This document shows, one piece after another, positions 3,514 through 57,459 of a stretch of 64,000 bases of DNA. The position numbers were made by a program, and so were the translations under genes. Numbering within the stretch: position 1 is the stretch's first letter; the number at the start of each line of letters is the position of its first letter. The notes below the pieces were generated by a model. That model had not been told where the DNA came from. It saw nothing but the letters and a program-made list of their open reading frames with translations, and did not search any database. The stretch comes from Candidatus Thorarchaeota archaeon (GTDB lineage: Archaea; Asgardarchaeota; Thorarchaeia; Thorarchaeales; Thorarchaeaceae). The DNA lies in NCBI GenBank assembly GCA_020348985.1, contig CP070761.1:1112921-1176920 (forward strand), in the 5' to 3' direction.

Positions 3514-4725
3514 ATGCCAATGAAAGAAATCCTAGTCAAGGCTGCAGAGATCATAATCGGAAACGGGGAGATGCTCGAGGACGCATCAGTTCATGTTCGA
3601 GGCAACAGAATAGCCGATGTCGGACCTGATGTGAAATCGCCAAATGCCGAAGTCATGGACTTCTCAGACCGTGTCATAATGCCAGGCATCATTGATACAC
3701 ACATACACGTTAGTCACGACGGTCAGAATCCAGATCCCAGGGAATCATCACTCTTCACCGACGAATACCTAGCAATTCGCGGAGCGAAACTGGCAGGGCA
3801 GATGCTGCAATATGGAATAACAACAGTTGCTGATGCTGCTGCAAGAAGCGATGTTTCATTTGCAGTGAAACAGGCGGTAGAAAAAGGAATAGTACGGGGA
3901 CCGAGAGTGCTTGCTTGCGGAAGAATGATCACGATAACCGGCGGCCGTGACAGGATATACGGACCAAATGAAGCAGACGGCATAGATGGAGTTCGTCGTG
4001 CAACAAGAGAGGAGCTCGGAAGAGGTGCTGATTTCATCAAGTTAGCTGCCACAGGAGCGATTTCGTCATCCAGGACAGAGAGCTTCAGTGCTCAATTCAC
4101 TCTGGAAGAACTGCGAGCGGCCGCGGAAGAGACACATAACGTAGGCAAGATGGCTCACGCTCATGCCTACGGGGACGCAGGAGTACAAAACACGATCCTG
4201 TCAGGCGTTGATGTTGTGGTGCATGGTCATCCACTGAGTGATGAATCCATTGACATGATGCTAGAGAATAAGACACTTCTAATGCCGACTCTTGTGACCT
4301 ATTACGAATCCCAGAAGCATCACGATGATGGGGACCTCCCTGACTACATGGTCCGGAAGGAAAGGGAGCTTTTCCCTCTAATAGAGAGTGGCATCAGAAA
4401 CTCGGTCAAGAAGGGAGTGGAGATTGTTTTAGGCTCGGACACAGGAATGCCTTACACTCCCTTTGGGCCTTCAACATTGATGGAACTAGAACTGCTTGTG
4501 AAAATGGGTGGGATGTCTGAGATGGATGCTATTGCGGCTGGAACTCTCAATGCAGCTAGGTCTCTGAAGATAGAATCCGACACAGGGACTATTGCTCCTG
4601 GCAAGTCCGCTGATTTCCTAATTCTGGGTGAAGATATCAATCCAGTGGACGACATCACATCACTACAGAAACTCGGTGCCATTGAGGCAGTCTTCCTGAG
4701 GGGAAAAAGAGTAATCGCCGAGTAA
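3514..4725 (+). CDS. Amidohydrolase-family metal-dependent hydrolase
   Basis: The ORF has a 'GIIDTHIHVSHDG' metal-binding HxH motif and the overall architecture of imidazolonepropionase/prolidase-like amidohydrolases. The track ORF starts at TTG 3478, but the first in-frame ATG (3514 or 3520) is the more likely start. Confidence 0.65.
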   Translation: MPMKEILVKAAEIIIGNGEMLEDASVHVRGNRIADVGPDVKSPNAEVMDFSDRVIMPGIIDTHIHVSHDGQNPDPRESSLFTDEYLAIRGAKLAGQMLQYGITTVADAAARSDVSFAVKQAVEKGIVRGPRVLACGRMITITGGRDRIYGPNEADGIDGVRRATREELGRGADFIKLAATGAISSSRTESFSAQFTLEELRAAAEETHNVGKMAHAHAYGDAGVQNTILSGVDVVVHGHPLSDESIDMMLENKTLLMPTLVTYYESQKHHDDGDLPDYMVRKERELFPLIESGIRNSVKKGVEIVLGSDTGMPYTPFGPSTLMELELLVKMGGMSEMDAIAAGTLNAARSLKIESDTGTIAPGKSADFLILGEDINPVDDITSLQKLGAIEAVFLRGKRVIAE

Positions 4726-47675: not shown

Positions 47676-49187
47676 CTACGTGCCAATCCTTCGTCTCAGG
47701 ACGAGAGCAAGCACAACTACCACACCGAAAGCTCCAGTCAACGGCAAAATCAGTGACATTGGCTGTGCCTGGCTTTCCAACGCGGCCTGAAGTGCGATCC
47801 CTGCGGCCCTCCACGAATCTGCAGTAGCAAGCAAATGACCTGCTATGTCAGCCAAATCCTGTCTGTGGTTCTCAAGAACTACATCGAGGTTTCTACTCGA
47901 GTCGAATTCCTCGACCATTTCAAAGAACGTGTTGGATAATAGAGAGTCGTGATTGGCCAGGTAATCGAAATCAACCAATGTTCCGTTGTCACTCAGTGCG
48001 TCCAAGTGTGTTAGGGCATTCTGACCTGCGACGAGAAAATCGGTCAAATCAAAGTCAGTCAGAAGTCTTGGGAGTGACTCCAGAGCTGTGCGGTATGAGA
48101 GATACTGGAGTGTCAACATGAACTCGAGAAACATCCCAAGATTGGCCAGACGATCAATCTGGTCCTCGAAGTTGTCATATTCCTCAATGTAGAGAGCAAC
48201 ACCTTCTGGAGTGATGTCATAGCTGAGCCCTCGGAATGCCTTTTCGCCGAAGTTTAGGAAGAAAGCGTCTTCGTCCGTAAAGGGGATATAGGATTCTTGC
48301 GCTCCAAGCAGCCTTGACGCCACAAACTCACCGAGTTCTGTTTGGAAGTCAGGTTTCGTCCCATTCTCAGGTTTTATTGTCGTCGTCCCGTAGGCAAATG
48401 CACCCCAAGCATTGTTCAGCTGAGAGTAGTTCATTGTGTAACGCCATCTGCCATCTTCGGGGTAACCAAAATCGTCACCAAAGGCGCCTACACCAGGATC
48501 CAAAATCTCAACGGTCTCGCTCGTATCATTATACCCTATCGCCAGGACAGCATGACCTGAGACAGGGGCAGTTGTGTTTTGGAAAAGTCCATAGTCACGT
48601 AGGATTTGATAGTCGTCAGGGGGGAGATAGTAGGGATCAGTCCACAAGACAACGGGATATCCCTCGTCCAGCGTGTTCTTCATGATCTCAAACGCATCAT
48701 TCCAGCCATGGATTGTATTGATGTCCGGATTCCACTGCGACCATAGCTCAATAGCTGTGTCGACCCAAGGAGAGGTCTCGCTAAGATAGAATTTCTGTTC
48801 TAGTCCGTAGAAGTCACAAATGGGGACCAATTGGCCGACCTGAATGTAAGCAGAACCAGCTAGGAACGTCATTGTGTCGTTAAAGCGAATGTATGCTGCC
48901 GAGAATCCGATTCCCGATGCTGCAAAGAACTCGTGGAGAGTCAAAGGGACCTCTGCGCCGCCAAGAGCCATTGTAACTGCAGCCCAGAAACAGAATCCGC
49001 TAATCTCCTGCCATACATAAGGTGTATCCTGAATCAGTGCTGAACCATCAATGGAAATGGTATGGTCAGGACCCGCAATTACAGGCCCTGACCTATTGTC
49101 GTGTAAGGAGATAGGAAACAATGATAGCGAAAGCAGTAGGAGGACCATGATGGTCATTCGTGTCTTAGGTGAACGAACGACCACCAT
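47676..49187 (-). CDS. Secreted papain-like cysteine peptidase (C39-like / BtrH-N-like) with a C-terminal TM anchor
   Basis: The protein has a signal peptide, a candidate catalytic Cys in 'QEISGFCFWAAVTMALGG', a candidate His in 'SGHAVLAIGYND', and a C-terminal hydrophobic helix followed by 'RRRIGT'. Confidence 0.5.
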   Translation of the reverse strand: MVVVRSPKTRMTIMVLLLLSLSLFPISLHDNRSGPVIAGPDHTISIDGSALIQDTPYVWQEISGFCFWAAVTMALGGAEVPLTLHEFFAASGIGFSAAYIRFNDTMTFLAGSAYIQVGQLVPICDFYGLEQKFYLSETSPWVDTAIELWSQWNPDINTIHGWNDAFEIMKNTLDEGYPVVLWTDPYYLPPDDYQILRDYGLFQNTTAPVSGHAVLAIGYNDTSETVEILDPGVGAFGDDFGYPEDGRWRYTMNYSQLNNAWGAFAYGTTTIKPENGTKPDFQTELGEFVASRLLGAQESYIPFTDEDAFFLNFGEKAFRGLSYDITPEGVALYIEEYDNFEDQIDRLANLGMFLEFMLTLQYLSYRTALESLPRLLTDFDLTDFLVAGQNALTHLDALSDNGTLVDFDYLANHDSLLSNTFFEMVEEFDSSRNLDVVLENHRQDLADIAGHLLATADSWRAAGIALQAALESQAQPMSLILPLTGAFGVVVVLALVLRRRIGT

Positions 49188-49353
49188 CAGTCACCCCTGG
49201 ATCCGACATTTAACAGCTTCAATGCACTGTCGACTTCACGTTGGGTTGGATTATTGCTCAGTCGCAAATCGTACATGGTTTTGGGGCGCTGGTGAAATCC
49301 AGCACCATTCTTACCGTGTCGATATCTGAGTATTCCCGGCCCCTCCATTAGAG

Positions 49354-51042
49354 CTACACCTCAACCTTGCCCAGGCTTCTGACGCCCAAGAACAGCATCA
49401 GGCCACCCATGAGCAACAATGCCACTGGACCCATGATGGCTTGTGTGAACCAGAAACCATCTACACCGAAGATGTTCTCAATGACGCGAAAGATGTTGAC
49501 ATCCAATGCGATACTGAAGAATATGTCGATGAAGAGGGGAGCAATCAGTGTAAACTGGGTCAACAACATGGAGCCTATTAGAACACTCTGATGGGCTGGA
49601 GACTTCGTGTCTTCATAGTTAGGGTTCTGAGCTGTCATGCCCATGCTTACCATGACAGCACCGCAAACTATGATGTATGAAGATGCAATCATCTGCAACG
49701 CCATCAATGGCTCAAGTGCAAACATGACACTGACTACAACACTTGGAGCAAGACTTAGAGGAAAGGCCAGTAGGAATCCTGACGCGAGTCTGGCACGCAT
49801 GAAGCGAGAAGCACCAGATGGTGCACTCCGGATTATCCAAAGCTGGTCCTTGCTCTCAAGGAATCCTGTTCCTGCGAATGGGAAGACTCCGACAACACCA
49901 ATCATTATGCCAATCATTGGCAGAATATCCATGGCCGTGACGGTGTCACCATCGTAGACAGCAATCTGGGACATGATAATCGGAAGTACTACCGCCAGTA
50001 CAACACCGTAGAGAATCTTTGAAATATTCTGAACCTTTCTGCCAAAGTCCTTCAGACTCACCACTGTCAACGCACCAAAAGATCCCTTGGCTGCTCTCCG
50101 GACTCCGCGTATCACAAAGTTCTCTCGACCTACAGTTGTGACGGTCTCAGTGCGCACACCGGCACTGATTGTGAAAACTCTGTCTGCAGCACTTAATGCA
50201 ATTGGCACCCATACCAAGCCGAATGCTGCTGTTAGGAGTAGACTCGTCCACATGTCGAGCTGCAAAATCGCCCCAAAGCCCAGTATCTGAGAGCCAGTCA
50301 AACCAATACCATTGAAGGCTATCGCAATCCAGCTGACCAAGTCTGCTGGCCATGTGAATGGCATTAGCAGAAATGCATTCATTCCTAGAATATCAGACAA
50401 CACTGGCATGAAGAACATCACACCGTACATAGGCACTATCACAATCAGTGCAATAACGAAGGTCAATGCCTTAGCTATGTCGTTTCCGCGTGGTGAATCC
50501 CCAAGTCTTGCTTGGACCAATGCCGTCACGAAGTTGGAGAGCCAGATGGTTGAAAGAACCATGGCTGCAATCGCACTGTATACCAAAGCCTGACCTAGGA
50601 ACGAAACTTCAAACGCTAGCATGAATGGAGATATCATTAGGGGAGCAAGTATCACTACAACCAATCCGTAGAATGGTATCTTGCCAGCGAAAGTGCCAAT
50701 GATTATGTCCTTTGTTCTCACGTTGTTTGAGAGGAAAATCTCCCATTGACCAATCTTAATCTCCTGTAGGGCGAAGGACAGTGGGTATAATAGCAACAAT
50801 ATCCACAGGAACAGCATTACTGTACGCATGAGTCCAGGGAACATAGACATCAACAGTAGTCGAATCTGTGACATTGGAATCAGCGACTGTATGATGAAGC
50901 CCATGATCGTTGGTGCCAAGTACGCGGCCCATACGATAGCTAATGCATACATGCTTGCCACGGTGACTGTTCTGTGGCTCCTGAAGCTCGAGGTCAAGAC
51001 GTAGAACTCAGCCTTCGCGATGCTTAGCCACTTTCGGGTCAA
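49354..51042 (-). CDS. Large polytopic permease, paralog B (putative ABC-2 exporter membrane component)
   Basis: The 562-aa ORF is paralogous to 45749..47392. It lies 4 bp downstream of the ABC ATPase gene. Confidence 0.5.
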   Translation of the reverse strand: MTRKWLSIAKAEFYVLTSSFRSHRTVTVASMYALAIVWAAYLAPTIMGFIIQSLIPMSQIRLLLMSMFPGLMRTVMLFLWILLLLYPLSFALQEIKIGQWEIFLSNNVRTKDIIIGTFAGKIPFYGLVVVILAPLMISPFMLAFEVSFLGQALVYSAIAAMVLSTIWLSNFVTALVQARLGDSPRGNDIAKALTFVIALIVIVPMYGVMFFMPVLSDILGMNAFLLMPFTWPADLVSWIAIAFNGIGLTGSQILGFGAILQLDMWTSLLLTAAFGLVWVPIALSAADRVFTISAGVRTETVTTVGRENFVIRGVRRAAKGSFGALTVVSLKDFGRKVQNISKILYGVVLAVVLPIIMSQIAVYDGDTVTAMDILPMIGIMIGVVGVFPFAGTGFLESKDQLWIIRSAPSGASRFMRARLASGFLLAFPLSLAPSVVVSVMFALEPLMALQMIASSYIIVCGAVMVSMGMTAQNPNYEDTKSPAHQSVLIGSMLLTQFTLIAPLFIDIFFSIALDVNIFRVIENIFGVDGFWFTQAIMGPVALLLMGGLMLFLGVRSLGKVEV

Positions 51043-51046
51043 GACA

Positions 51047-51817
51047 TCACCTCCAGGCCAGGAGTGCTTCGCGGTCTACTTGACCTCCAACTATCTGCAG
51101 GTAGGCTTCCTCAAGGTCGCTGACATGGGCTGCCTGGATTATATCCTCAGGAGAGCCAAGTGTGACTAGCTCACCTTCGTTCAGAATCCCTATGACGTCA
51201 CAGACATCTTCGGCGAAGCTTGTCATGTGCGTGCAGATGAAGAAGCTCGTCTCGGTCTCTTCTGCGAGGACAAGAATCAAGTCCTTCACAAGTGCACTTG
51301 CAGAGGGATCAAGCCTTGAAGTGGGCTCGTCCAGAAAGACTAGCTTTGGCTCATGTAGCAGAGTAGAGGCTACCAACACTTTTTGCTTCATACCAGAAGA
51401 GTACGACTCCAGAAGGTCATCTTGTCTTCCCTCAAGACCAAGCATTCCAAGTAATGCGTCAATCCTCTTCATGAGAGACTCGCCATTGTGGTCGTTGAGT
51501 GCGCCAATGAACTCAAGAAACTCAACAGCTGAGAGTTTCGAGTAAAGCCCCGGTGACTCAGGAAGGAGACCAGTGATTGCTTTGATCTCGTCTCTCTGGG
51601 TGTCAATATCAAGTCCGCAGACCTTTCCTCTCCCGCTCGTCTGTTTGAGCAAGCCAGACAGAATACGAACGGTGGTTGTCTTGCCGGCCCCATTAGGACC
51701 AAGGAAACCGAATCTGCTTCCAGCACGTACCTCTAGATCGAGGTCCACAACTGCGCGAACTGGCCCGAAGGTCTTGTTCAGCGCTTCTGTTTGAATCACT
51801 ATACCGTTTCCGGTCAT
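51047..51817 (-). CDS. ABC transporter ATP-binding protein (ABC-2/CcmA-like)
   Basis: The ORF has Walker A 'GPNGAGKTT', the signature 'YSSGMKQKV' and Walker B 'LVFLDEPTSRLD'. Confidence 0.75.
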   Translation of the reverse strand: MTGNGIVIQTEALNKTFGPVRAVVDLDLEVRAGSRFGFLGPNGAGKTTTVRILSGLLKQTSGRGKVCGLDIDTQRDEIKAITGLLPESPGLYSKLSAVEFLEFIGALNDHNGESLMKRIDALLGMLGLEGRQDDLLESYSSGMKQKVLVASTLLHEPKLVFLDEPTSRLDPSASALVKDLILVLAEETETSFFICTHMTSFAEDVCDVIGILNEGELVTLGSPEDIIQAAHVSDLEEAYLQIVGGQVDREALLAWR

Positions 51818-51832
51818 CGTTAATCACTTGTA

Positions 51833-51887
51833 AATCTTTACCGATTACAGGTATACTTAGCATAATGTTTATATATAAATCTTTACC
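51833..51887. promoter_or_regulatory. TATA-like box (TTTATATATAAA, 51868-51879) flanked by an 11-bp direct repeat AAATCTTTACC (51833-51843 and 51877-51887)
   Basis: These are read directly from the 129-bp divergent intergenic region between the ABC ATPase gene (-) and the 202-aa ORF (+). The TATA box lies about 79 bp upstream of the ATG at 51947. A TTCCGGAA palindrome lies further downstream. Confidence 0.35.
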
Positions 51888-51946
51888 ATAAAGCAGTAGA
51901 GATTAACCCGGAATACTTAAGTTCCGGAAGAACACGAGGAAACAAA

Positions 51947-52555
51947 ATGGGACTACTCTCAATTCACGAATCAGTTGTCTGGTGGGAATACCAGCACGGT
52001 AAATCCACTGGCGATATATTCAGTGAGTATGAGAGACCCATGCCAACTCCGAAACATGTCCTTGATGTCTACGGGCGTCTAATTGACGAAAAAACAAAGA
52101 GCGATGAGGACAAGAAGAAGGAGAAGGAAAAGATTCAGACAACAGAGCTGAAGAGTGCAGCTTACGTGTCACGTGTTCTCAGCAGGGCGAAGGAAAAGAT
52201 TGGCAAGGAGCTCAGTAATCATGCCAACAGCCATCGTCTTGATGTTGAGACAGTCTTGGATGACAAGGGGTACTTGAAGGGCTTCGATTATCAGGCCAAT
52301 ACGGAAGTATTCATCATCTTCACTTTGGATTTAGGAGTGGTAGTCTGGTACAGGCACGACTCTTATGCTGGGAAGCTCTGTCCCGACTGTCCGAAGGAAG
52401 AGGAATGTAGACAGACACTTGATACGACTCTGCTTGAATACGACTTGACGCTTAGGCCGGATCAAGAAGAGCTTCACATGACACGGCAGTCGATTGCAAT
52501 CTTCAACAAGCTTGCGGCCAAGGAAGTTCCTCGCTACAAGAGACAAGAAGAGTAA
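51947..52555 (+). CDS. Hypothetical protein (Cys-containing 'CPDCPKEEEC')
   Basis: The 202-aa ORF is the first gene downstream of the TATA promoter. Its 3' end overlaps the start region of the next gene. Confidence 0.4.
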   Translation: MGLLSIHESVVWWEYQHGKSTGDIFSEYERPMPTPKHVLDVYGRLIDEKTKSDEDKKKEKEKIQTTELKSAAYVSRVLSRAKEKIGKELSNHANSHRLDVETVLDDKGYLKGFDYQANTEVFIIFTLDLGVVVWYRHDSYAGKLCPDCPKEEECRQTLDTTLLEYDLTLRPDQEELHMTRQSIAIFNKLAAKEVPRYKRQEE

Positions 52556-52568
52556 TGGATGTGAGATA

Positions 52569-53318
52569 ATGAGTTCGGGATACGATGAACGAGTGATTAA
52601 GCCTCCTTTGGAGTCAGTGGCGTTTGGTAGGGTATTCAAGCCCACAGCGTCGCTTCGCAACAAGTACTGGTTTATAGCCATCATCACCGCCCTTATCATG
52701 TATTTGACGACTATTGGAACATTCTTCGGAATAATGTACATGGTCTATTCAATCAATCAGACTCTGTTTCAATGGCAGACCTGGTTCGACTCGTTCTGGG
52801 GACCAGTGAACTTCTGGTTCTGGGGAATTGCCTTGGTGATTCTGATACCTTACATTGTCGGCGTACCTATCTACCTGAACAGGTTCGAGTACTCTGTAAG
52901 AGGCGAGTCCGGTGAAACGATGCCGGAGGTTTATGTCAAGAAGGGCATCATTAACGTAACCGTCAAGCATGTTCCTCTGAGAACGATTACCAATATATCA
53001 ACAAGGACAGGACCGTTTGACAGACTCTTCAAGATTGGCAATGTTGAGATTCACACAGCAGGGCAATCTGGCAGCTACTATGAAGCAGGAAAGCCGGAGG
53101 AAAAAATCGAGGGAATCGTGTTCTACGAAGAACTTAGAGACTACATACTTGGTGAGATGCGGAAGCTGAAGGGCACTTATGCAGTTGGAACCGAGGTACT
53201 CACACCTGATGAGACTCCTATACCTGGAAACATAGACGAAGCTATTCTCACGACGCTTCGACAGCTTCGCGACATCTTGAGAAGAATGGACGAGAAACTA
53301 GACCGAGGAGGATATTGA
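52569..53318 (+). CDS. bPH_2 (YdbS/YdbT-like bacterial PH domain) membrane protein, paralog 1
   Basis: 'VIKPPLE' is followed by 2 TM helices, then 'YVKKGIINVTVKHVPLRTITNISTRTGPFDRLFKIGNVEIHTAGQSG', which matches the bPH_2/DUF304 consensus ending in 'TAG'. The internal ATG 52569 is the more likely start. Confidence 0.5.
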   Translation: MSSGYDERVIKPPLESVAFGRVFKPTASLRNKYWFIAIITALIMYLTTIGTFFGIMYMVYSINQTLFQWQTWFDSFWGPVNFWFWGIALVILIPYIVGVPIYLNRFEYSVRGESGETMPEVYVKKGIINVTVKHVPLRTITNISTRTGPFDRLFKIGNVEIHTAGQSGSYYEAGKPEEKIEGIVFYEELRDYILGEMRKLKGTYAVGTEVLTPDETPIPGNIDEAILTTLRQLRDILRRMDEKLDRGGY

Positions 53319-53320
53319 AA

Positions 53321-53428
53321 ATGCGACCGTTGAGTAGACGCGTGCTGGCCATATTGAGCGTTATGGGCACCTTCTCGAGTCTCTTCATCTACTTTCTACT
53401 GATTAGTCTATCAGGAGGGTTCTCATAA
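53321..53428 (+). CDS. Small hydrophobic peptide (35 aa), member of a local family
   Basis: I translated this myself; it is below the ORF-track cut-off. It reads MRPLSRRVLAILSVMGTFSSLFIYFLLISLSGGFS. Its stop overlaps the ATG of the next gene (TAATG). Confidence 0.3.
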   Translation: MRPLSRRVLAILSVMGTFSSLFIYFLLISLSGGFS

Positions 53429-54168
53429 TGGGTAAGGAAAAGAGTAGCAAAGTAATCAAACCACCACTGGAGAGGATTGCAAGCGGGAAGGTCTTCAGAC
53501 CAGCGAGAGCTTTCATCTACAAGGGATGGTTTGATGGCATCTTGGTTGCCATTGGAATTTGGTTGTTTGGAGTAGTGTGTGCGTTTGGAATCGGTTGGAT
53601 TGTTGTCGTAGCAGAAGGCATTCTTGTTGAAGAATTCTGGGGAGCGGTAGCCTACTGGTGGGGACCCGCCAATTTCTGGTATTGGCTGATAACGGCAATA
53701 TGGCTGACCCCTGCGGTGATAATCTGGCCGTTCTATGTTCGAAGAATCGAATACTCTGTAATTGCAGAAAGCGGGAAAACAATGCCCGAGATCTACGTCA
53801 GGAAAGGCATAATCACGATTACTGAGAAGCACGTTCCGTTCCGCACGATCACAAACATCTCAAGTCGCGCCGGTCCGATTGACAGGCTCTTCGGAATAGG
53901 GAGCGTGTGGATCCAGACCGCGGGATACTCAGGCGGCGCTCAGGCGGGAGCAAAACCCGAGGAGAAGTTGGAGGGCATTCACATCTTTGAGGCGGTTAGG
54001 GACTTTGTCCTCAGAGAGCTTCGTAGGTTCAGAGACCCCTATGTGACTGGAACAGAAGTCGTATCTCCAAGACCTGAAGCGGCCGTGACAGAAGGGACAT
54101 CCTCGCAGGAAGAAATCCTTGGTGTTCTGAGAGAGATCAGAGATCTGCTCAGGCGCGAGAGAGAATAG
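53428..54168 (+). CDS. bPH_2 (YdbS/YdbT-like) membrane protein, paralog 2
   Basis: 'VIKPPLE', 2 TM helices and 'YVRKGIITITEKHVPFRTITNISSRAGPIDRLFGIGSVWIQTAGYSG' make it paralogous to the upstream gene. Confidence 0.5.
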   Translation: MGKEKSSKVIKPPLERIASGKVFRPARAFIYKGWFDGILVAIGIWLFGVVCAFGIGWIVVVAEGILVEEFWGAVAYWWGPANFWYWLITAIWLTPAVIIWPFYVRRIEYSVIAESGKTMPEIYVRKGIITITEKHVPFRTITNISSRAGPIDRLFGIGSVWIQTAGYSGGAQAGAKPEEKLEGIHIFEAVRDFVLRELRRFRDPYVTGTEVVSPRPEAAVTEGTSSQEEILGVLREIRDLLRRERE

Positions 54169-54178
54169 CAGTCTAAGA

Positions 54179-54367
54179 GTGATGAGAATGGTTTCAGCAA
54201 GCAGAGTACTGGGAATCATCCTAGTGGTCGCGGGATTCGTTCTTATCCTCTTCCGAGTTGTCGAAGCCATAGCAGGATTCCCCTTCCTCATGGAGCAATT
54301 GCTATTGGGATTCTTCGTTTTGTTGATAGGGCTATCATTGATGGGGAGACTACGTAAGATTGGATAG
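54179..54367 (+). CDS. Small membrane peptide (62 aa), same local family
   Basis: 'SRVLGIILVVAGFVLILF...' has two hydrophobic helices and shares the R-V-L-x-I motif with the other peptides. Confidence 0.35.
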   Translation: MMRMVSASRVLGIILVVAGFVLILFRVVEAIAGFPFLMEQLLLGFFVLLIGLSLMGRLRKIG

Positions 54368-54379
54368 GAGAAATGTAAA

Positions 54380-54484
54380 TTGAGTAGCAGAATCGTTGCG
54401 CGTTTCATTGTTTTACTGATTGGGATTATCCTGTTCGTGATTTTCCTGTTTGGGTTTTTCATGATGGGCGGATCTTTCTCGTAG
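54380..54484 (+). CDS. Small hydrophobic peptide (about 34 aa, TTG start), same local family
   Basis: I translated this myself. It reads (L)SSRIVARFIVLLIGIILFVIFLFGFFMMGGSFS. The start codon is uncertain. Confidence 0.25.
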   Translation: MSSRIVARFIVLLIGIILFVIFLFGFFMMGGSFS

Positions 54485-54528
54485 AACTTCATGAATGGAC
54501 GTGAGTATCTGACGGGATGTGGTGACGA

Positions 54529-54798
54529 TTGGTTTTAGGAAGACGAGACCGAGGAGTCGTTTTGGCTATCGCAGGACTCTTCCTAATGTTCTTTCAGATA
54601 ATCGATCTAGTCATTGGAGGGTCCTACTTCGGCGGCTTTGGACTCCTGGGAGCATTCATCTTTCTGATTGGATTGACCGTTGTCGGAAGAGCATTGACTA
54701 GCAGAAAGGCTGCATGGTATTCTACCTTCTTCATTGGCATTGTGTTGTTTGTGTTCTTCCTAGTCGTCTACCTAATGAAGGGAGGAATGCTACCCTAG
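54529..54798 (+). CDS. Small membrane protein (89 aa), same local family
   Basis: 'RGVVLAIAGLFLMFFQIIDLVIGG...' has three hydrophobic helices. Confidence 0.35.
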   Translation: MVLGRRDRGVVLAIAGLFLMFFQIIDLVIGGSYFGGFGLLGAFIFLIGLTVVGRALTSRKAAWYSTFFIGIVLFVFFLVVYLMKGGMLP

Positions 54799-54815
54799 GA
54801 TAGGAGTCTGCTAGA

Positions 54816-54911
54816 ATGGTTACAGTTCAAAGAGTTGTCTTCAAAATCGCCCTCATGATTGTGGCAATTGTGCTTCTCCTGATAGGATTGTTCCTCTTTT
54901 CGATGTTCTAG
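54816..54911 (+). CDS. Small hydrophobic peptide (31 aa), same local family
   Basis: I translated this myself. It reads MVTVQRVVFKIALMIVAIVLLLIGLFLFSMF. A GGAG-like sequence lies upstream. Confidence 0.3.
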   Translation: MVTVQRVVFKIALMIVAIVLLLIGLFLFSMF

Positions 54912-54991
54912 GCGGGGTGGCCCAGTCTAGGCTCTTCAAACCCATGAGATAAAAGGGAGAGGAACGGTCTGTTTCCGGTTAGGATTCTACT

Positions 54992-56260
54992 ATGGCCATA
55001 GAGGACACACCATTCGTGTACAGAACACGATTAGACAAAAGCCTCTATGCATTCTATTACGCTACTGAGGGTTTCGCCACCACTGGAATCCTTACTTTTC
55101 TGCCCCTATACGTGAGGGATTATGTCCTTATCCCTGAGGCCCTTCTTGGGATCCTTTTGGCAATAGCAGCGATTCCAGCATTCATTAAGGTTTTCTATGG
55201 CCTTGTTAGCGATTCTAGATCCATTGGTGGGATGGGGCACAGAAGACCCTATGTACTCCTCTCAGTTCCGATGACTATTGGAGCATGGCTACTGTTTCCA
55301 TTAGTCACCGAGGCGGTTCTGTTCACTACATTGGTATTTCTTGCCTCTGTTGGATTCTCGATAGGAGACACTGCTGTTGATGCTTGGGCAGTAGAGATAA
55401 CTCCAACGAAAGAGAGGGGATCAATGATGGGGATTGCTTGGGGAGCTCAGGGGATTGCTTCGGTCATGGGAGCGCTTGCAACCACCATCGTTGGACCGGC
55501 ATATGGATTCACAACAGCTTTCGCCTTGCTTGGGATAGTCCAAGGATTTGGTGGAATTGTCTGGTTTGTATTCGCAAGAGAGAAGCCTATTGTGCACAGG
55601 AAGACGATCCACGGTACACTAGGATCATTGAAAGAGGAACTGAGACACAGGTATCTTTGGCTTGCATTCTTGGCCTTCATATTCGGCGGCTTTGTGTTTG
55701 GAGTGGGCTCCAATTTCATGACCTTGTTCTTTGAAGATGTTGTAGGCGCATCCGAGACAGAGATAGGAGTGTTGGTTCTTGTCTGGTCTCTGATGTTCTT
55801 TGTGGGCGGAGCGATTGGTGGTTCAGTTTATGATAGATTCAAAGACCATCGGACAGGAATCTACACAATAGCGCCGGTCTATGCCATCTCACTGTTCATG
55901 CTCACCCTCAATCAACATGGGGCATATGAGCTGGCATACGCGACTGCGATTTTCTACGGCCTAGGCAGCGGACTAACGACGGCAGCAGTCATGGGGTTTG
56001 CTGCTCGGATAACACCTGCCGTTGTCACTGGAACTGTATTTGCAGTTATTACGTCTTTTGTGAACATAGGCCGGGCAGGGCTTGGGAATGTGTACTTGGG
56101 CTACATGGTGACGAACTACGACTACACACTGGCGTTCACTTTAGGAGCACTCATCGCATTTCCCATTATCTTGTTAGCTCGATTCATTGATCACCCAAGA
56201 CTTCATGAAGAGCTTGTTGAAAAACCTGCTATTGAAGAATCAACCTACGAAAATGAATAA
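54992..56260 (+). CDS. MFS transporter
   Basis: The 422-aa ORF has 12 predicted TM helices in two 6-TM halves separated by a central loop. Confidence 0.6.
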   Translation: MAIEDTPFVYRTRLDKSLYAFYYATEGFATTGILTFLPLYVRDYVLIPEALLGILLAIAAIPAFIKVFYGLVSDSRSIGGMGHRRPYVLLSVPMTIGAWLLFPLVTEAVLFTTLVFLASVGFSIGDTAVDAWAVEITPTKERGSMMGIAWGAQGIASVMGALATTIVGPAYGFTTAFALLGIVQGFGGIVWFVFAREKPIVHRKTIHGTLGSLKEELRHRYLWLAFLAFIFGGFVFGVGSNFMTLFFEDVVGASETEIGVLVLVWSLMFFVGGAIGGSVYDRFKDHRTGIYTIAPVYAISLFMLTLNQHGAYELAYATAIFYGLGSGLTTAAVMGFAARITPAVVTGTVFAVITSFVNIGRAGLGNVYLGYMVTNYDYTLAFTLGALIAFPIILLARFIDHPRLHEELVEKPAIEESTYENE

Positions 56261-56290
56261 CCTCAAAGGCGAGAGAGTCGTAGTTCTGCC

Positions 56291-56398
56291 ATGACACCTA
56301 CGAGACTCATCCTCAAGGTCATTCTTCTGGTCTTTGTCGTTTTGCTTCTGGTAATCATCCTGTTGATTCAGTTTGGTCTTGTTCCAGGCCTTTCCTAG
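56291..56398 (+). CDS. Small hydrophobic peptide (35 aa), same local family
   Basis: I translated this myself. It reads MTPTRLILKVILLVFVVLLLVIILLIQFGLVPGLS. Confidence 0.3.
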   Translation: MTPTRLILKVILLVFVVLLLVIILLIQFGLVPGLS

Positions 56399-56410
56399 GA
56401 GTGATGATAG

Positions 56411-56518
56411 ATGAGTGGGAGGATTGTCCTGAGAATCGCTGTTCTATTTCTGCTGATTCTATTACTCGCAATCTTTTTGCTTGGTTACTTTGTGCTCGGT
56501 GGAGGACTTTTTGGCTAG
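56411..56518 (+). CDS. Small hydrophobic peptide (35 aa), same local family
   Basis: I translated this myself. It reads MSGRIVLRIAVLFLLILLLAIFLLGYFVLGGGLFG. Confidence 0.3.
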   Translation: MSGRIVLRIAVLFLLILLLAIFLLGYFVLGGGLFG

Positions 56519-56610
56519 GGGGACAGCCTTGAGGGGCTCGTTTTCCTGAAGCAAGAATGGGAGAGGCACTGTAACGGTGAGCCCAGTCTCTTCATGAATT
56601 GATTCTTGCC

Positions 56611-57459
56611 CTATCCCAGATTCATACCGAGATCGTCCACAAGCTTCTCGAAATTGCGAAGACTTTGCTGGGCATTATCTCTGTCACGAACTTCGAATAC
56701 GTACTGGATTGGTGATGGAGCAATCTCAGTCAAGAAGCGAAGCGGAGGCTCGAAGTCGATTGTACCCTCACCCACTATTTGATGTGAACCACATCGTTCA
56801 GACCAATCGTGAATGTGTACTACAGAGACAGATCTCCTATGTTTGTGGAAAACTGTCCAATCCTTGTCCTTGATCCTGCCCGTTGAATCGTAGAGCTTTG
56901 GTATATCGACACATAGCTTTAGCCCTTCCGAAATGAGAGATTCAATCGCGTCGTGGACAAGCGGGGTCCAGTTGTGGTTCTCAAGGACAATATCAACGTC
57001 TGGAGAGGCATAGTCTATCAATTCAAGCAAGTTTCCAACCAGTGTGTTTAGGAAGTCGCCATAGAATGCCTTCACGAACTCATCTTTCATCATTCGTGCC
57101 TGTTTCAGGCTCGGTAAGACTCCAGCGTGGACAACGAGATTTGTACTTGAGACGCTAACACTTCGGGCAAAGTCGATGATCCTCTTCAGGTAATGAATGA
57201 TGGCTCTCTTTACTGGTGCGTACGTAGCAAAGAGACTGATATCGTCACCAGGAGCGTGAAAACCCCAACCCACTCTGAGCTCTTGGGAGAGGTCTCGCAG
57301 CTTTTTTTTCTGCTCTTGGCTGTACTTCTCTGGAGCGAAGCGAGGGACACCAATGTCAGGGACGATGGAGGTCCAGTTATTCCCAGATGCGTAGTTTAGG
57401 GCATCCTCAAGTGAGCTATCATAGACCACGTGGTAGGCCCGATTGCTTGGAAGTGGCAT
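56611..57459 (-). CDS. Xylose-isomerase-like TIM-barrel protein (sugar phosphate isomerase/epimerase family)
   Basis: 'NLVVHAG' and 'IVLENHN' blocks are typical of the AP-endonuclease-2/xylose isomerase-like fold. Confidence 0.4.
   Translation of the reverse strand: MPLPSNRAYHVVYDSSLEDALNYASGNNWTSIVPDIGVPRFAPEKYSQEQKKKLRDLSQELRVGWGFHAPGDDISLFATYAPVKRAIIHYLKRIIDFARSVSVSSTNLVVHAGVLPSLKQARMMKDEFVKAFYGDFLNTLVGNLLELIDYASPDVDIVLENHNWTPLVHDAIESLISEGLKLCVDIPKLYDSTGRIKDKDWTVFHKHRRSVSVVHIHDWSERCGSHQIVGEGTIDFEPPLRFLTEIAPSPIQYVFEVRDRDNAQQSLRNFEKLVDDLGMNLG

Follow-up and report, generated by a model that had tools for sequence, protein, structure and literature searches.

Introduction

Leaderless-bacteriocin loci, namely those for enterocin DD14 (ddABCDEFGHIJ), enterocin L50, lacticin Q (lnq) and aureocin A53, are the closest known analogue of the gene cluster described here, in which seven small open reading frames (ORFs), P1 to P7, are interleaved with genes for bPH_2 membrane proteins on contig CP070761.1 of a Candidatus Thorarchaeota archaeon. 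The window, i.e., the whole stretch of DNA that was analyzed, comprises 64,000 nucleotides (positions 1,112,921 to 1,176,920 of that contig), and coordinates of the locus refer to it. In the DD14 locus, export of the leaderless bacteriocin EntDD14 depends on the YdbS/YdbT-type PH proteins DdE and DdF, which have homologues in LnqC/D and in Orf7/8 of aureocin A53 (PMC8657885), and the protein DdD, which has three transmembrane (TM) segments and is encoded directly upstream of DdE/DdF, confers immunity (PMC13262744). In Staphylococcus aureus, ydbT/ydbS mutations change the resistance to pleurocidin and pexiganan (bioRxiv 10.64898/2026.07.05.736553).

Two further groups of very small membrane proteins are relevant for comparison. 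KdpF, AcrZ and CydX are small single-pass accessory subunits of membrane complexes, and type I toxins of the Ibs, Hok, Fst or TisB type are stand-alone genes repressed by antisense RNAs, for which tandem multiplication is common. An earlier inspection of the window by a model that saw only the letters and a list of ORFs (the original prediction) had proposed that P1 to P7 constitute an undescribed membrane-peptide system, whose members could be toxin-like or pore-forming or, instead, regulatory or assembly partners of the bPH_2 proteins. The analysis reported here argues that the seven ORFs are genuine micro-proteins belonging to a conserved Thorarchaeota operon. They are most likely membrane partners of a bPH_2 complex, a reading in which our confidence is about even.

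Results

Seven small membrane ORFs within a bPH_2 operon

The seven ORFs lie exactly where the original prediction had placed them, all on the + strand (Table 1), and Pfam searches bore out that they are interleaved with two bPH_2 genes and a major facilitator superfamily (MFS_1) gene. The proposed overlap between the P1 stop codon (TAA, 53426-53428) and the ATG of bPH_2 #2 (53428), giving TAATG, was found as well. The grand average of hydropathicity (GRAVY) of P1–P7 is 1.18–2.35, and basic residues flank the hydrophobic helices on the cytoplasm-facing side, at the N-terminus of the single-pass peptides, at the C-terminus of P2 and in the internal loop of P4. The five smallest peptides, of 31–35 aa, have a net charge of only +2 to +3, located N-terminally. 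Single-pass peptides contain no Trp, and their positive N-terminus leads into an uninterrupted hydrophobic helix. In hydrophobicity the peptides resemble KdpF and Ibs-type peptides and differ from leaderless bacteriocins. The clustering of such ORFs far exceeds chance. The 64-kb window has 13 small ORFs with a GRAVY >1.2, of which six fall in the 3.2-kb peptide stretch, on one strand and without mutual overlap, as do all four with a GRAVY of at least 2.0.

P2 more likely starts at ATG 54188 (59 aa) than at GTG 54179, because a Shine-Dalgarno (SD)-like site precedes that start alone. The C-terminal GG motif pointed out in the original prediction is real, although specific to the window lineage. 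A double-glycine leader of the C39-processed kind was not found in the peptides, the GG being situated 2–4 residues from the C-terminus and not at a leader/core junction.

Table 1 Coordinates of the features of the locus in the 64,000-nucleotide window
Feature	Coordinates	Strand	Description
Polytopic membrane protein	49354..51042	−	562 aa; presumed permease partner of the ABC ATPase
ABC transporter ATPase	51047..51817	−	DrrA/ABC-2-exporter type; Pfam ABC_tran E 4e-24
Divergent promoter region	51836..51879	+	Degenerate palindrome, then TATA box TTTATATATAAA (51868-51879)
u202	51947..52555	+	202-aa operon leader; predicted transcription regulator, N-terminal sigma70-region-4/LuxR-type helix-turn-helix (HTH) and C-terminal alpha/beta domain
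bPH_2 #1	52569..53318	+	249 aa; TM hairpin and one bacterial PH domain, YdbS-like; PF03703 E 5e-10
P1	53321..53428	+	35-aa single-pass micro-protein; TAATG coupling to bPH_2 #2; 6-nt SD-like site GGAGGA
bPH_2 #2	53428..54168	+	246 aa; PF03703 E 2.6e-9
P2	54179..54367	+	Two-TM hairpin micro-protein; 62 aa from GTG 54179
P3	54380..54484	+	34-aa single-pass; canonical member of the clade-wide family; SD-like site AGGAG
P4	54529..54798	+	89-aa three-TM; apparent fusion of hairpin (P2-like) and single-pass (P3-like) parts; SD-like site GGTGA
P5	54816..54911	+	31-aa single-pass micro-protein; SD-like site AGGAG
MFS transporter	54992..56260	+	422 aa; MFS_1/BT1, weakly AmpG-like; Pfam MFS_1 E 1e-41
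P6	56291..56398	+	35-aa single-pass micro-protein; no SD-like site found
P7	56411..56518	+	35-aa single-pass; final gene before the convergent AP_endonuc_2 gene; SD-like site GGAGTGA
AP_endonuc_2 gene	56611-57459	−	Convergent with the operon, next after P7

The ORFs are under purifying selection in close relatives

Coding status was assessed against two closely related loci, L001 and L086, whose bPH_2 #2 proteins are 78% and 86% identical to that of the window, respectively. L001 contains in-frame homologues of P1, P3, P5, P6 and P7 and one two-TM ORF. In L086, P1, P3, P5 and a P4 of the same length (89 aa) are present and P2 is absent, pointing to P2 having been gained or lost recently. At 67–80% nucleotide identity, the ORFs have retained their reading frames, their starts and stops, and similar lengths. 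Synonymous sites are near saturation in both comparisons, yet the proportion of nonsynonymous differences (pN) is lower than that of synonymous ones (pS) for every peptide. In the annotated frame, pooled pN/pS relative to L086 was 0.38, as opposed to 0.78 and 1.54 for the same DNA read in the two other frames, and a value of 0.35 was obtained over nine distant orthologues of a 32-aa peptide. The corresponding ratio of rates (dN/dS) relative to L001 was 0.12–0.47 for the peptides and 0.05–0.07 for the large genes. Individually, P1 shares 55% of its residues with its L001 counterpart (dN/dS 0.29) and 62% with that of L086 (pN/pS 0.40), and P3 shares 59% (dN/dS 0.12) and 76% (pN/pS 0.26). P4 is 59% identical to the L086 fusion (pN/pS 0.36), and P5 is 68% identical to its homologue in L001 and 43% to that in L086. 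P6 and P7 are 80% and 65% identical to their L001 homologues (dN/dS 0.21 and 0.47).

P1, P3, P4, P5 and P7 each have a properly spaced SD-like site of 5–6 nt, and one lies just before ATG 54188 of P2. In the related loci, of 56 small TM ORFs inside operons 66% have a site of at least 5 nt, whereas the figure for 4835 small ORFs used as controls is 12% (Fisher p 3e-21). These signatures argue that the seven ORFs are genuine, translated micro-membrane-proteins. One could object that they are chance frames, untranslated, in T-rich intergenic DNA rich in hydrophobic codons, as they are very short, hydrophobic peptides align readily, P6 lacks an SD-like site and some genome annotations leave the peptide ORFs uncalled. 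For the set as a whole this reading is refuted, and hardly any probability remains to it. It accounts neither for the conserved frames and lengths, with pN < pS in the annotated frame only, nor for the SD-like enrichment, for peptide similarities above shuffles (z up to 11) or for profile matches all located on the operon strand (see below). P2 or P6, taken individually, is less secure.

The original prediction had allowed that the ORFs might lack conservation or be pieces of a larger gene; what we found was conservation with synteny, selection acting in the annotated frame and no detectable similarity to bPH_2 proteins. Repeats at the DNA level among the peptide genes amount to short, chance-level matches only, and the duplications are therefore not recent at that level. 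A 187-aa antisense ORF (53929–54492, −) covering the 3′ end of bPH_2 #2 and P2/P3 was rejected as spurious, the longest stop-free stretch being 89 codons in L001 and 80 in L086. A search of Rfam with positions 51500–57000 gave no match at E ≤0.1.

Two modules, one fusion and one positional analogue

According to the original prediction, the seven peptides form one family with a shared core. We determined pairwise similarities as z scores relative to composition-preserving shuffles and found the core to be real for subsets of the peptides, with two classes, one fusion and one analogue instead of a single family. P2 is paralogous to the N-terminal two thirds of P4 (z 11), and a single-pass network connects P3 with P7 (z 8.5), P3 with the C-terminal third of P4 (z 8.1) and P6 with P7 (z 4.9). 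The pairs P5/P6, P3/P5 and P5/P7 scored 3.2–3.5. P1 had no significant similarity to any other peptide in the shuffle test, and the P1 group, when left out, was missed by the hidden Markov model (HMM) of the family, with E above 100.

An HMM built from distant loci alone recovered P3 (E 5.6e-5), the C-terminal part of P4 at a borderline value (E 0.03) and the P5 orthologues of L001 and L086 (E about 1e-3), and P6 and P7 are linked to the family via their paralogy to P3 alone (z 4.9–8.5). P1 occupies the slot just after bPH_2 #1, which is that of a 32-aa peptide in distant loci, and P7 the terminal slot, held by a 30-32-aa peptide in distant operons. The similarity between the P2/P4 hairpins and the ~70-aa hairpin genes of distant operons is weak to modest (hhalign E 2.5e-4, probability 43%).

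We thus distinguish two putative modules, a single-pass one represented by P3, P5, P6, P7 and the C-terminal third of P4, and a two-helix hairpin represented by P2 and the N-terminal two thirds of P4. P4 appears to be a natural fusion of both, which is kept in L086 and is topologically consistent. P1 is, as judged from these comparisons, a conserved small TM ORF and a positional analogue only.

The peptides recur at fixed positions in Thorarchaeota operons

With u202 as a single-copy anchor, 80 loci were found in genomes of Thorarchaeota, Bathyarchaeia and Hermodarchaeota. A bPH_2 gene follows u202 in every locus where the downstream gene is visible. Thorarchaeota-type loci have two to four tandem bPH_2 genes, and most of those that are sufficiently long have a divergent ATP-binding cassette (ABC) ATPase gene, with a ~563-aa permease gene, ahead of the operon and a convergent AP_endonuc_2 gene behind it. 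Of the 26 complete non-redundant Thorarchaeota-type operons, 21 contain one or more small TM ORFs, at recurrent positions. Four bPH_2 genes may be followed by a 30–32-aa peptide, or the order may be bPH_2, 32-aa peptide, 70-aa hairpin, three bPH_2 genes and 30-aa peptide, with shorter variants also occurring. One-nucleotide spacers separate the 32-aa and 70-aa genes, and in L090 the start of the terminal 30-aa gene (a:30) overlaps the stop of bPH_2 #4. In loci with one bPH_2 gene (mostly Bathyarchaeia), only spurious-looking small TM ORFs, none of them convincing, were found after that gene.

An iterated HMM of the single-pass class yielded 32 matches at E <1e-3 (30 unique sequences), all 32 inside operons and on the operon strand. 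The expected co-occurrence with bPH_2 genes was thereby observed, with one exception, L089, which came from a database search and is discussed below. An exhaustive HMMER search of 1.84 billion representative proteins returned 16 clusters; their members are all 30–34 aa long, and in no case was a match part of a larger protein. The database search with the single-pass alignment was led by its 45-aa long-ORF form; large-database searches returned only unnamed 30–38-aa proteins, source-named members all being called “hypothetical protein,” and the genomic context of the matches in L087 and L090 is the same operon. No Pfam or NCBIfam entry covers the small-ORF families, and a literature search on Asgard small membrane proteins found nothing relevant. 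The claim of an undescribed membrane-peptide system beside bPH_2 genes therefore stands, for a system that is conserved and syntenic.

Gene calling in the source annotations is incomplete for these ORFs. The terminal 30-32-aa genes are uncalled in L002 (8281-8373), in L005 (7513-7605) and in L004 (a 32-aa ORF after the fourth bPH_2 gene), and three of the six small ORFs of L001 were called. The micro-protein family is under-annotated.

The peptides are not remnants of bPH_2 genes

Both bPH_2 proteins matched PF03703 well above the gathering cutoff of 22 bits (39.9 and 37.7 bits). The start of bPH_2 #1 is likely ATG 52569, as called in L001, and not TTG 52494; the protein is 86% identical to its L001 orthologue (dN/dS 0.06). 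bPH_2 #2 has 1318 relatives, of which the source-named ones are mostly from Thorarchaeota. An AlphaFold2 (AF2) model of bPH_2 #2 was confident for the TM hairpin 27-106 alone, with helices 27-63 and 67-106 at a predicted local distance difference test score (pLDDT) of about 90. The PH part was poorly modeled as a monomer, and the overall pLDDT of 60.5 was too poor for a fold search. A sequence search of the PDB with u202 and bPH_2 #2 gave no match.

Most Thorarchaeota operons (L002-L005, L009, L010, L013, L090 and others) contain four single-domain bPH_2 genes. The window lineage has kept the orthologues of units 1 and 2, and the third and fourth are absent. As P2–P7 fill the space of the missing genes, they could in principle be debris, chiefly TM hairpins, of third and fourth bPH_2 genes, and, in keeping with this, tblastn gave one weak match (E 0.035; 29% over 65 aa) between the P4 region and the TM hairpin of a bPH_2 protein. 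However, tblastn with 14 bPH_2 proteins detected no trace of a PH domain in the peptide regions, and hhalign gave a probability <1% for both peptide classes against bPH_2, equal to that of an unrelated permease used as a control. The same peptide classes occur alongside four intact bPH_2 genes in at least seven loci, the ORFs are under in-frame purifying selection and have SD-like sites, and no family member is embedded in a larger protein. An origin as bPH_2 debris is largely refuted by these data, and we consider it extremely unlikely.

The MFS gene, which the original prediction had counted as a component of the system, turned out not to belong to its conserved part. The window and L001 have the only complete operons that contain it, and L086 has a partial ORF at this position with about 71% nucleotide identity to it. 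Two scans of metagenome contigs, with the MFS protein and with an MFS alignment, gave no confirmed locus, so that the link between MFS and peptide genes was not traced beyond L001 and L086. Because of this limited presence and the partial ORF of L086, the MFS gene seems to be an insertion within the peptide array that is specific to this lineage.

An HTH regulator and a divergent exporter are conserved partners

The original prediction noted a 202-aa unknown protein upstream of the cluster. The gene is there, but its identity as a conserved partner with the predicted fold of an HTH regulator had been missed, as had the divergent DrrA-type ABC exporter. The u202 family comprises 526 uncharacterized proteins from the three archaeal groups sampled above. 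A confident AF2 model of u202 has an HTH like that of sigma region 4 or LuxR and an alpha/beta domain with the invariant residues H137, C145, C148 and C154, which may form a zinc site.

The TATA promoter proposed upstream of the cluster is real: the ATATAAA core is invariant across six aligned intergenic regions, those of the window and of five related loci. Just upstream of the TATA box lies a palindrome, GTTTAC-N10-12-GTAAAC, whose arms are conserved and which is degenerate in the window (CTTTAC...GTATAC). This palindrome is a likely operator, one that a dimeric HTH protein, for instance u202, would bind. A scan for bacterial sigma-70 promoters and terminators gave results near shuffle expectation, the bacterial model not being meaningful for an archaeon.

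The ABC ATPase gene is divergent from u202 in most Thorarchaeota-type loci that extend upstream. Its best NCBIfam match was the drrA subfamily (E 2.7e-59, under that model's cutoff). In most Thorarchaeota-type loci the ATPase gene has next to it a homologue of the 562-aa permease, 559-578 aa long. The protein matches none of the Pfam and NCBIfam models and may represent an unclassified ABC-2-like permease family. PADLOC defense models returned nothing specific, the only matches being generic ATPase matches for the ABC ATPase.

Beyond the permease gene, a 503-aa protein (47676-49187, −) has an N-terminal signal-like helix, a C-terminal TM anchor and a weak partial match to Peptidase_C39_2/BtrH_N (27.4 bits), and L001 and L005 have homologues of it downstream of their ABC permease genes. 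The protein could conceivably act in peptide processing. NCBIfam has no family for u202, the two bPH_2 proteins, the permease or the C39-like protein. A hydrophilic, basic ORF of 53 aa (MEGPGILRYRHGKNG...VGSRGD; 49187-49348, −) is located between the permease and C39_2-like genes, its stop abutting the peptidase start. It is conserved and gene-called in L001 and absent from all other loci.

Discussion

The peptides as proposed membrane partners of the bPH_2 proteins

We favor a membrane partnership between the peptides and the bPH_2 proteins because of the fixed positions of the peptide genes, their translational coupling, the conserved fusion and the anchor-like chemistry of the peptides. In this model the peptides would be accessory to a conserved operon of Thorarchaeota, whose core consists of the HTH regulator u202 and, after it, two to four paralogous single-domain YdbS-like bPH_2 proteins, and which is usually divergent from a DrrA-type ABC exporter. 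The first module would be a 30-35-aa single-pass helix with its N-terminus in and C-terminus out, and the second a two-helix hairpin of 56-70 aa. Their genes keep to fixed places, behind the first bPH_2 gene and behind the last one, and are tightly coupled to their neighbors; in the window lineage the two modules are fused in P4. The peptides may insert in the membrane beside the TM hairpins of the bPH_2 proteins and there serve a bPH_2 complex that handles membrane or peptide stress, either as its small subunits or as its modulators. In the window lineage, the set has grown by tandem duplication and fusion, with an MFS gene inserted among the peptides. That the peptides physically associate with the bPH_2 proteins is inferred, and so is their physiological role. 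Coding status, conservation, family structure, operon architecture, the fold of the regulator and the lack of bPH_2 similarity are established by the analyses above, the first of these and the family structure as read from sequence comparison.

Several observations weigh against this view. The peptides evolve 3-6 times faster than their neighbors in terms of dN/dS, and their copy number and order shift among close relatives (P2 is missing in L086 and the order differs in L001), features that would also be typical of toxin, bacteriocin and immunity genes. Five of the 26 complete operons have no peptides, which are thus not obligatory. Moreover, L089 contains two tandem family members (4370-4465 and 4529-4627) on a 6.9-kb contig without a bPH_2 gene, so that the link of the family to bPH_2 operons is not a strict one. 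P1 is tied to the family by position only, the window copy of P5 scores only E 33 with the HMM from distant loci, P6 has no SD-like site, and the function of the bPH_2 proteins themselves is poorly understood. The neighbors of the L089 pair are genes for a 273-aa unknown protein, a Peptidase_M3 protein and a PadR protein.

The peptide ORFs might instead be regulatory, as translated spacers or sensors that couple expression ratios or monitor insertion in the manner of MifM, and not yield stable proteins. Stop/start overlaps and spacers of 1-15 nt do connect the peptides to downstream genes, and the peptides lie between paralogous genes whose stoichiometry may matter. However, the peptide sequence itself is under purifying selection, with an (A/G)-I-I-L-F motif that persists across genera, and terminal peptides such as P7, or a:30 elsewhere, have no downstream gene to regulate. 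In addition, 30-35 aa would be too short for a tethered nascent-chain arrest that requires an emerged TM segment. We regard a purely regulatory role as improbable and retain the membrane-partner model.

Whatever their role, the single-pass peptides represent a conserved family of 30–34-aa Asgard membrane proteins outside Pfam and NCBIfam that is frequently missed by gene callers. The family is tied to YdbS/YdbT-type PH membrane proteins, whose molecular function remains unclear even in bacteria, and the operon offers a compact system for probing how bPH_2 proteins handle small hydrophobic peptides, be it as subunits, by insertion or by export. It also makes the evolution of micro-proteins visible in three close relatives, through duplication, fusion of hairpin and helix, gain and loss, and transporter insertion.

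Comparison with known systems

Type I toxins have a similar size and extreme hydrophobicity. Unlike them, the window ORFs are operon-internal and have SD-like sites. An arrangement of stand-alone toxin and antisense RNA was not found, there being no Rfam match and no conservation of the antisense ORF; Rfam covers known families, and novel antisense RNAs are possible.

The likeness to leaderless-bacteriocin loci extends to tandem genes for 30-50-aa leaderless peptides beside two YdbS/YdbT-type PH proteins (PMC8657885, PMC13262744), a pair that has its counterpart in the two bPH_2 proteins of the window and the up to four of its relatives. It also includes an adjacent ABC transporter, a small HTH-like protein heading the operon, and DdD, a small cationic three-TM protein of about 90 aa with a topology comparable to that of P4. 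We retrieved the enterocin L50 locus as a comparator and verified its EntL50A sequence at 100%. Its two bacteriocin genes are divergent from the genes for all the other components, which are an HTH-like protein of 89 aa, a three-TM protein of 90 aa, PH proteins (143 and 460 aa), accessory proteins and an ABC transporter of the MacB/FtsX type.

This similar parts list lends itself to another reading of the archaeal operon, in which the peptides are leaderless and membrane-active, as archaeocin-like weapons or self-targeting toxins, are exported or inserted post-translationally by the bPH_2 proteins, and the ABC and MFS transporters serve export or immunity. The need for PH proteins in EntDD14 export (PMC8657885) and the altered peptide resistance of S. 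aureus ydbT/ydbS mutants (bioRxiv 10.64898/2026.07.05.736553) support it. So do the rapid evolution, tandem duplication and presence/absence variation between close relatives, and the tandem peptides of L089 without bPH_2 genes. In addition, peptides of 31-35 aa would leave the ribosome before the helix emerges and require post-translational handling.

The chemistry of the peptides argues otherwise. Leaderless bacteriocins are cationic, amphipathic and saposin-like (EntL50A has a GRAVY of 0.20, and EntL50A and lacticin Q have a GRAVY of 0.2-0.3 and a charge of +6), whereas P1–P7 are uniformly hydrophobic anchors (GRAVY 1.2-2.35), the net charge of the single-pass ones being +2 to +3 and confined to the N-terminus. 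None of the seven is a cationic amphipathic peptide of high K/W content with a GRAVY near 0-0.5, and there is no Trp/Lys-rich amphipathic helix as in EntL50A or lacticin Q. The seven do resemble these bacteriocins in having no leader. On this defining peptide feature, the predicted products would not belong to the leaderless-bacteriocin class. The peptide genes also lie within the bPH_2 operon, translationally coupled and at positions constant across genera, in contrast to the separate divergent unit of the L50 bacteriocin genes. The ABC types differ as well, DrrA-type with an unclassified 562-aa permease as opposed to MacB/FtsX. Neither hmmsearch nor hhalign gave a significant match between the L50 C, D, E and F proteins and the two peptide profiles, and at the sequence level the two kinds of loci share only the bPH_2 domain. 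The bacteriocin loci belong to Bacillota hosts, and the operon described here to an Asgard archaeon.

We hold the weapon-or-toxin reading to be possible if doubtful. The broader proposal that the micro-proteins are leaderless cargo of bPH_2, exported or inserted after translation, with some of them membrane-active archaeocins or toxins and with ABC and MFS immunity, is in our view unlikely. If cargo they are, a bPH_2-dependent leaderless-peptide pathway, so far seen only in Bacillota bacteriocin loci, would be common to bacteria and Asgard archaea, and this would be the first peptide-based antagonism system of the latter. Of the alternatives offered in the original prediction, the toxin or pore-former is not favored, the peptides having neither the charge of bacteriocins (+4 to +6) nor their low overall hydrophobicity; the assembly partner fits better.

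Such partners would find a parallel in KdpF, AcrZ and CydX. There is no homology to these proteins, and up to seven paralogous copies per operon and fast copy-number change would be unusual for them. The likeness lies in a length <50 aa, a single TM segment and a coupled gene within the operon of the partner, features found for P1, P3, P5, P6 and P7 (P2 and P4 being larger). They are also alike in rapid sequence drift under a hydrophobicity constraint and in being often missed by gene callers.

The partner proteins themselves compare with YdbS-YdbT of Bacillus subtilis and S. aureus (bPH_2, PF03703; COG3402/COG3428), which likewise have a bacterial PH domain behind a TM hairpin and are encoded by adjacent, co-oriented genes, with ties to envelope stress and membrane-active peptides. 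Co-encoded micro-proteins are not reported for ydbST in the literature cited here. The bacterial proteins form a 1+3-domain pair, under sigma-W control in the case of YdbS-YdbT and with the same domain partition in DdE/DdF, whereas the archaeal operon has two to four single-domain paralogues of about 245 aa and its dedicated HTH regulator u202. The four single bPH_2 units of most Thorarchaeota operons equal the 1+3 PH units of YdbS+YdbT and of DdE+DdF, an analogy that hints at a functional complex made of four (2TM+PH) units.

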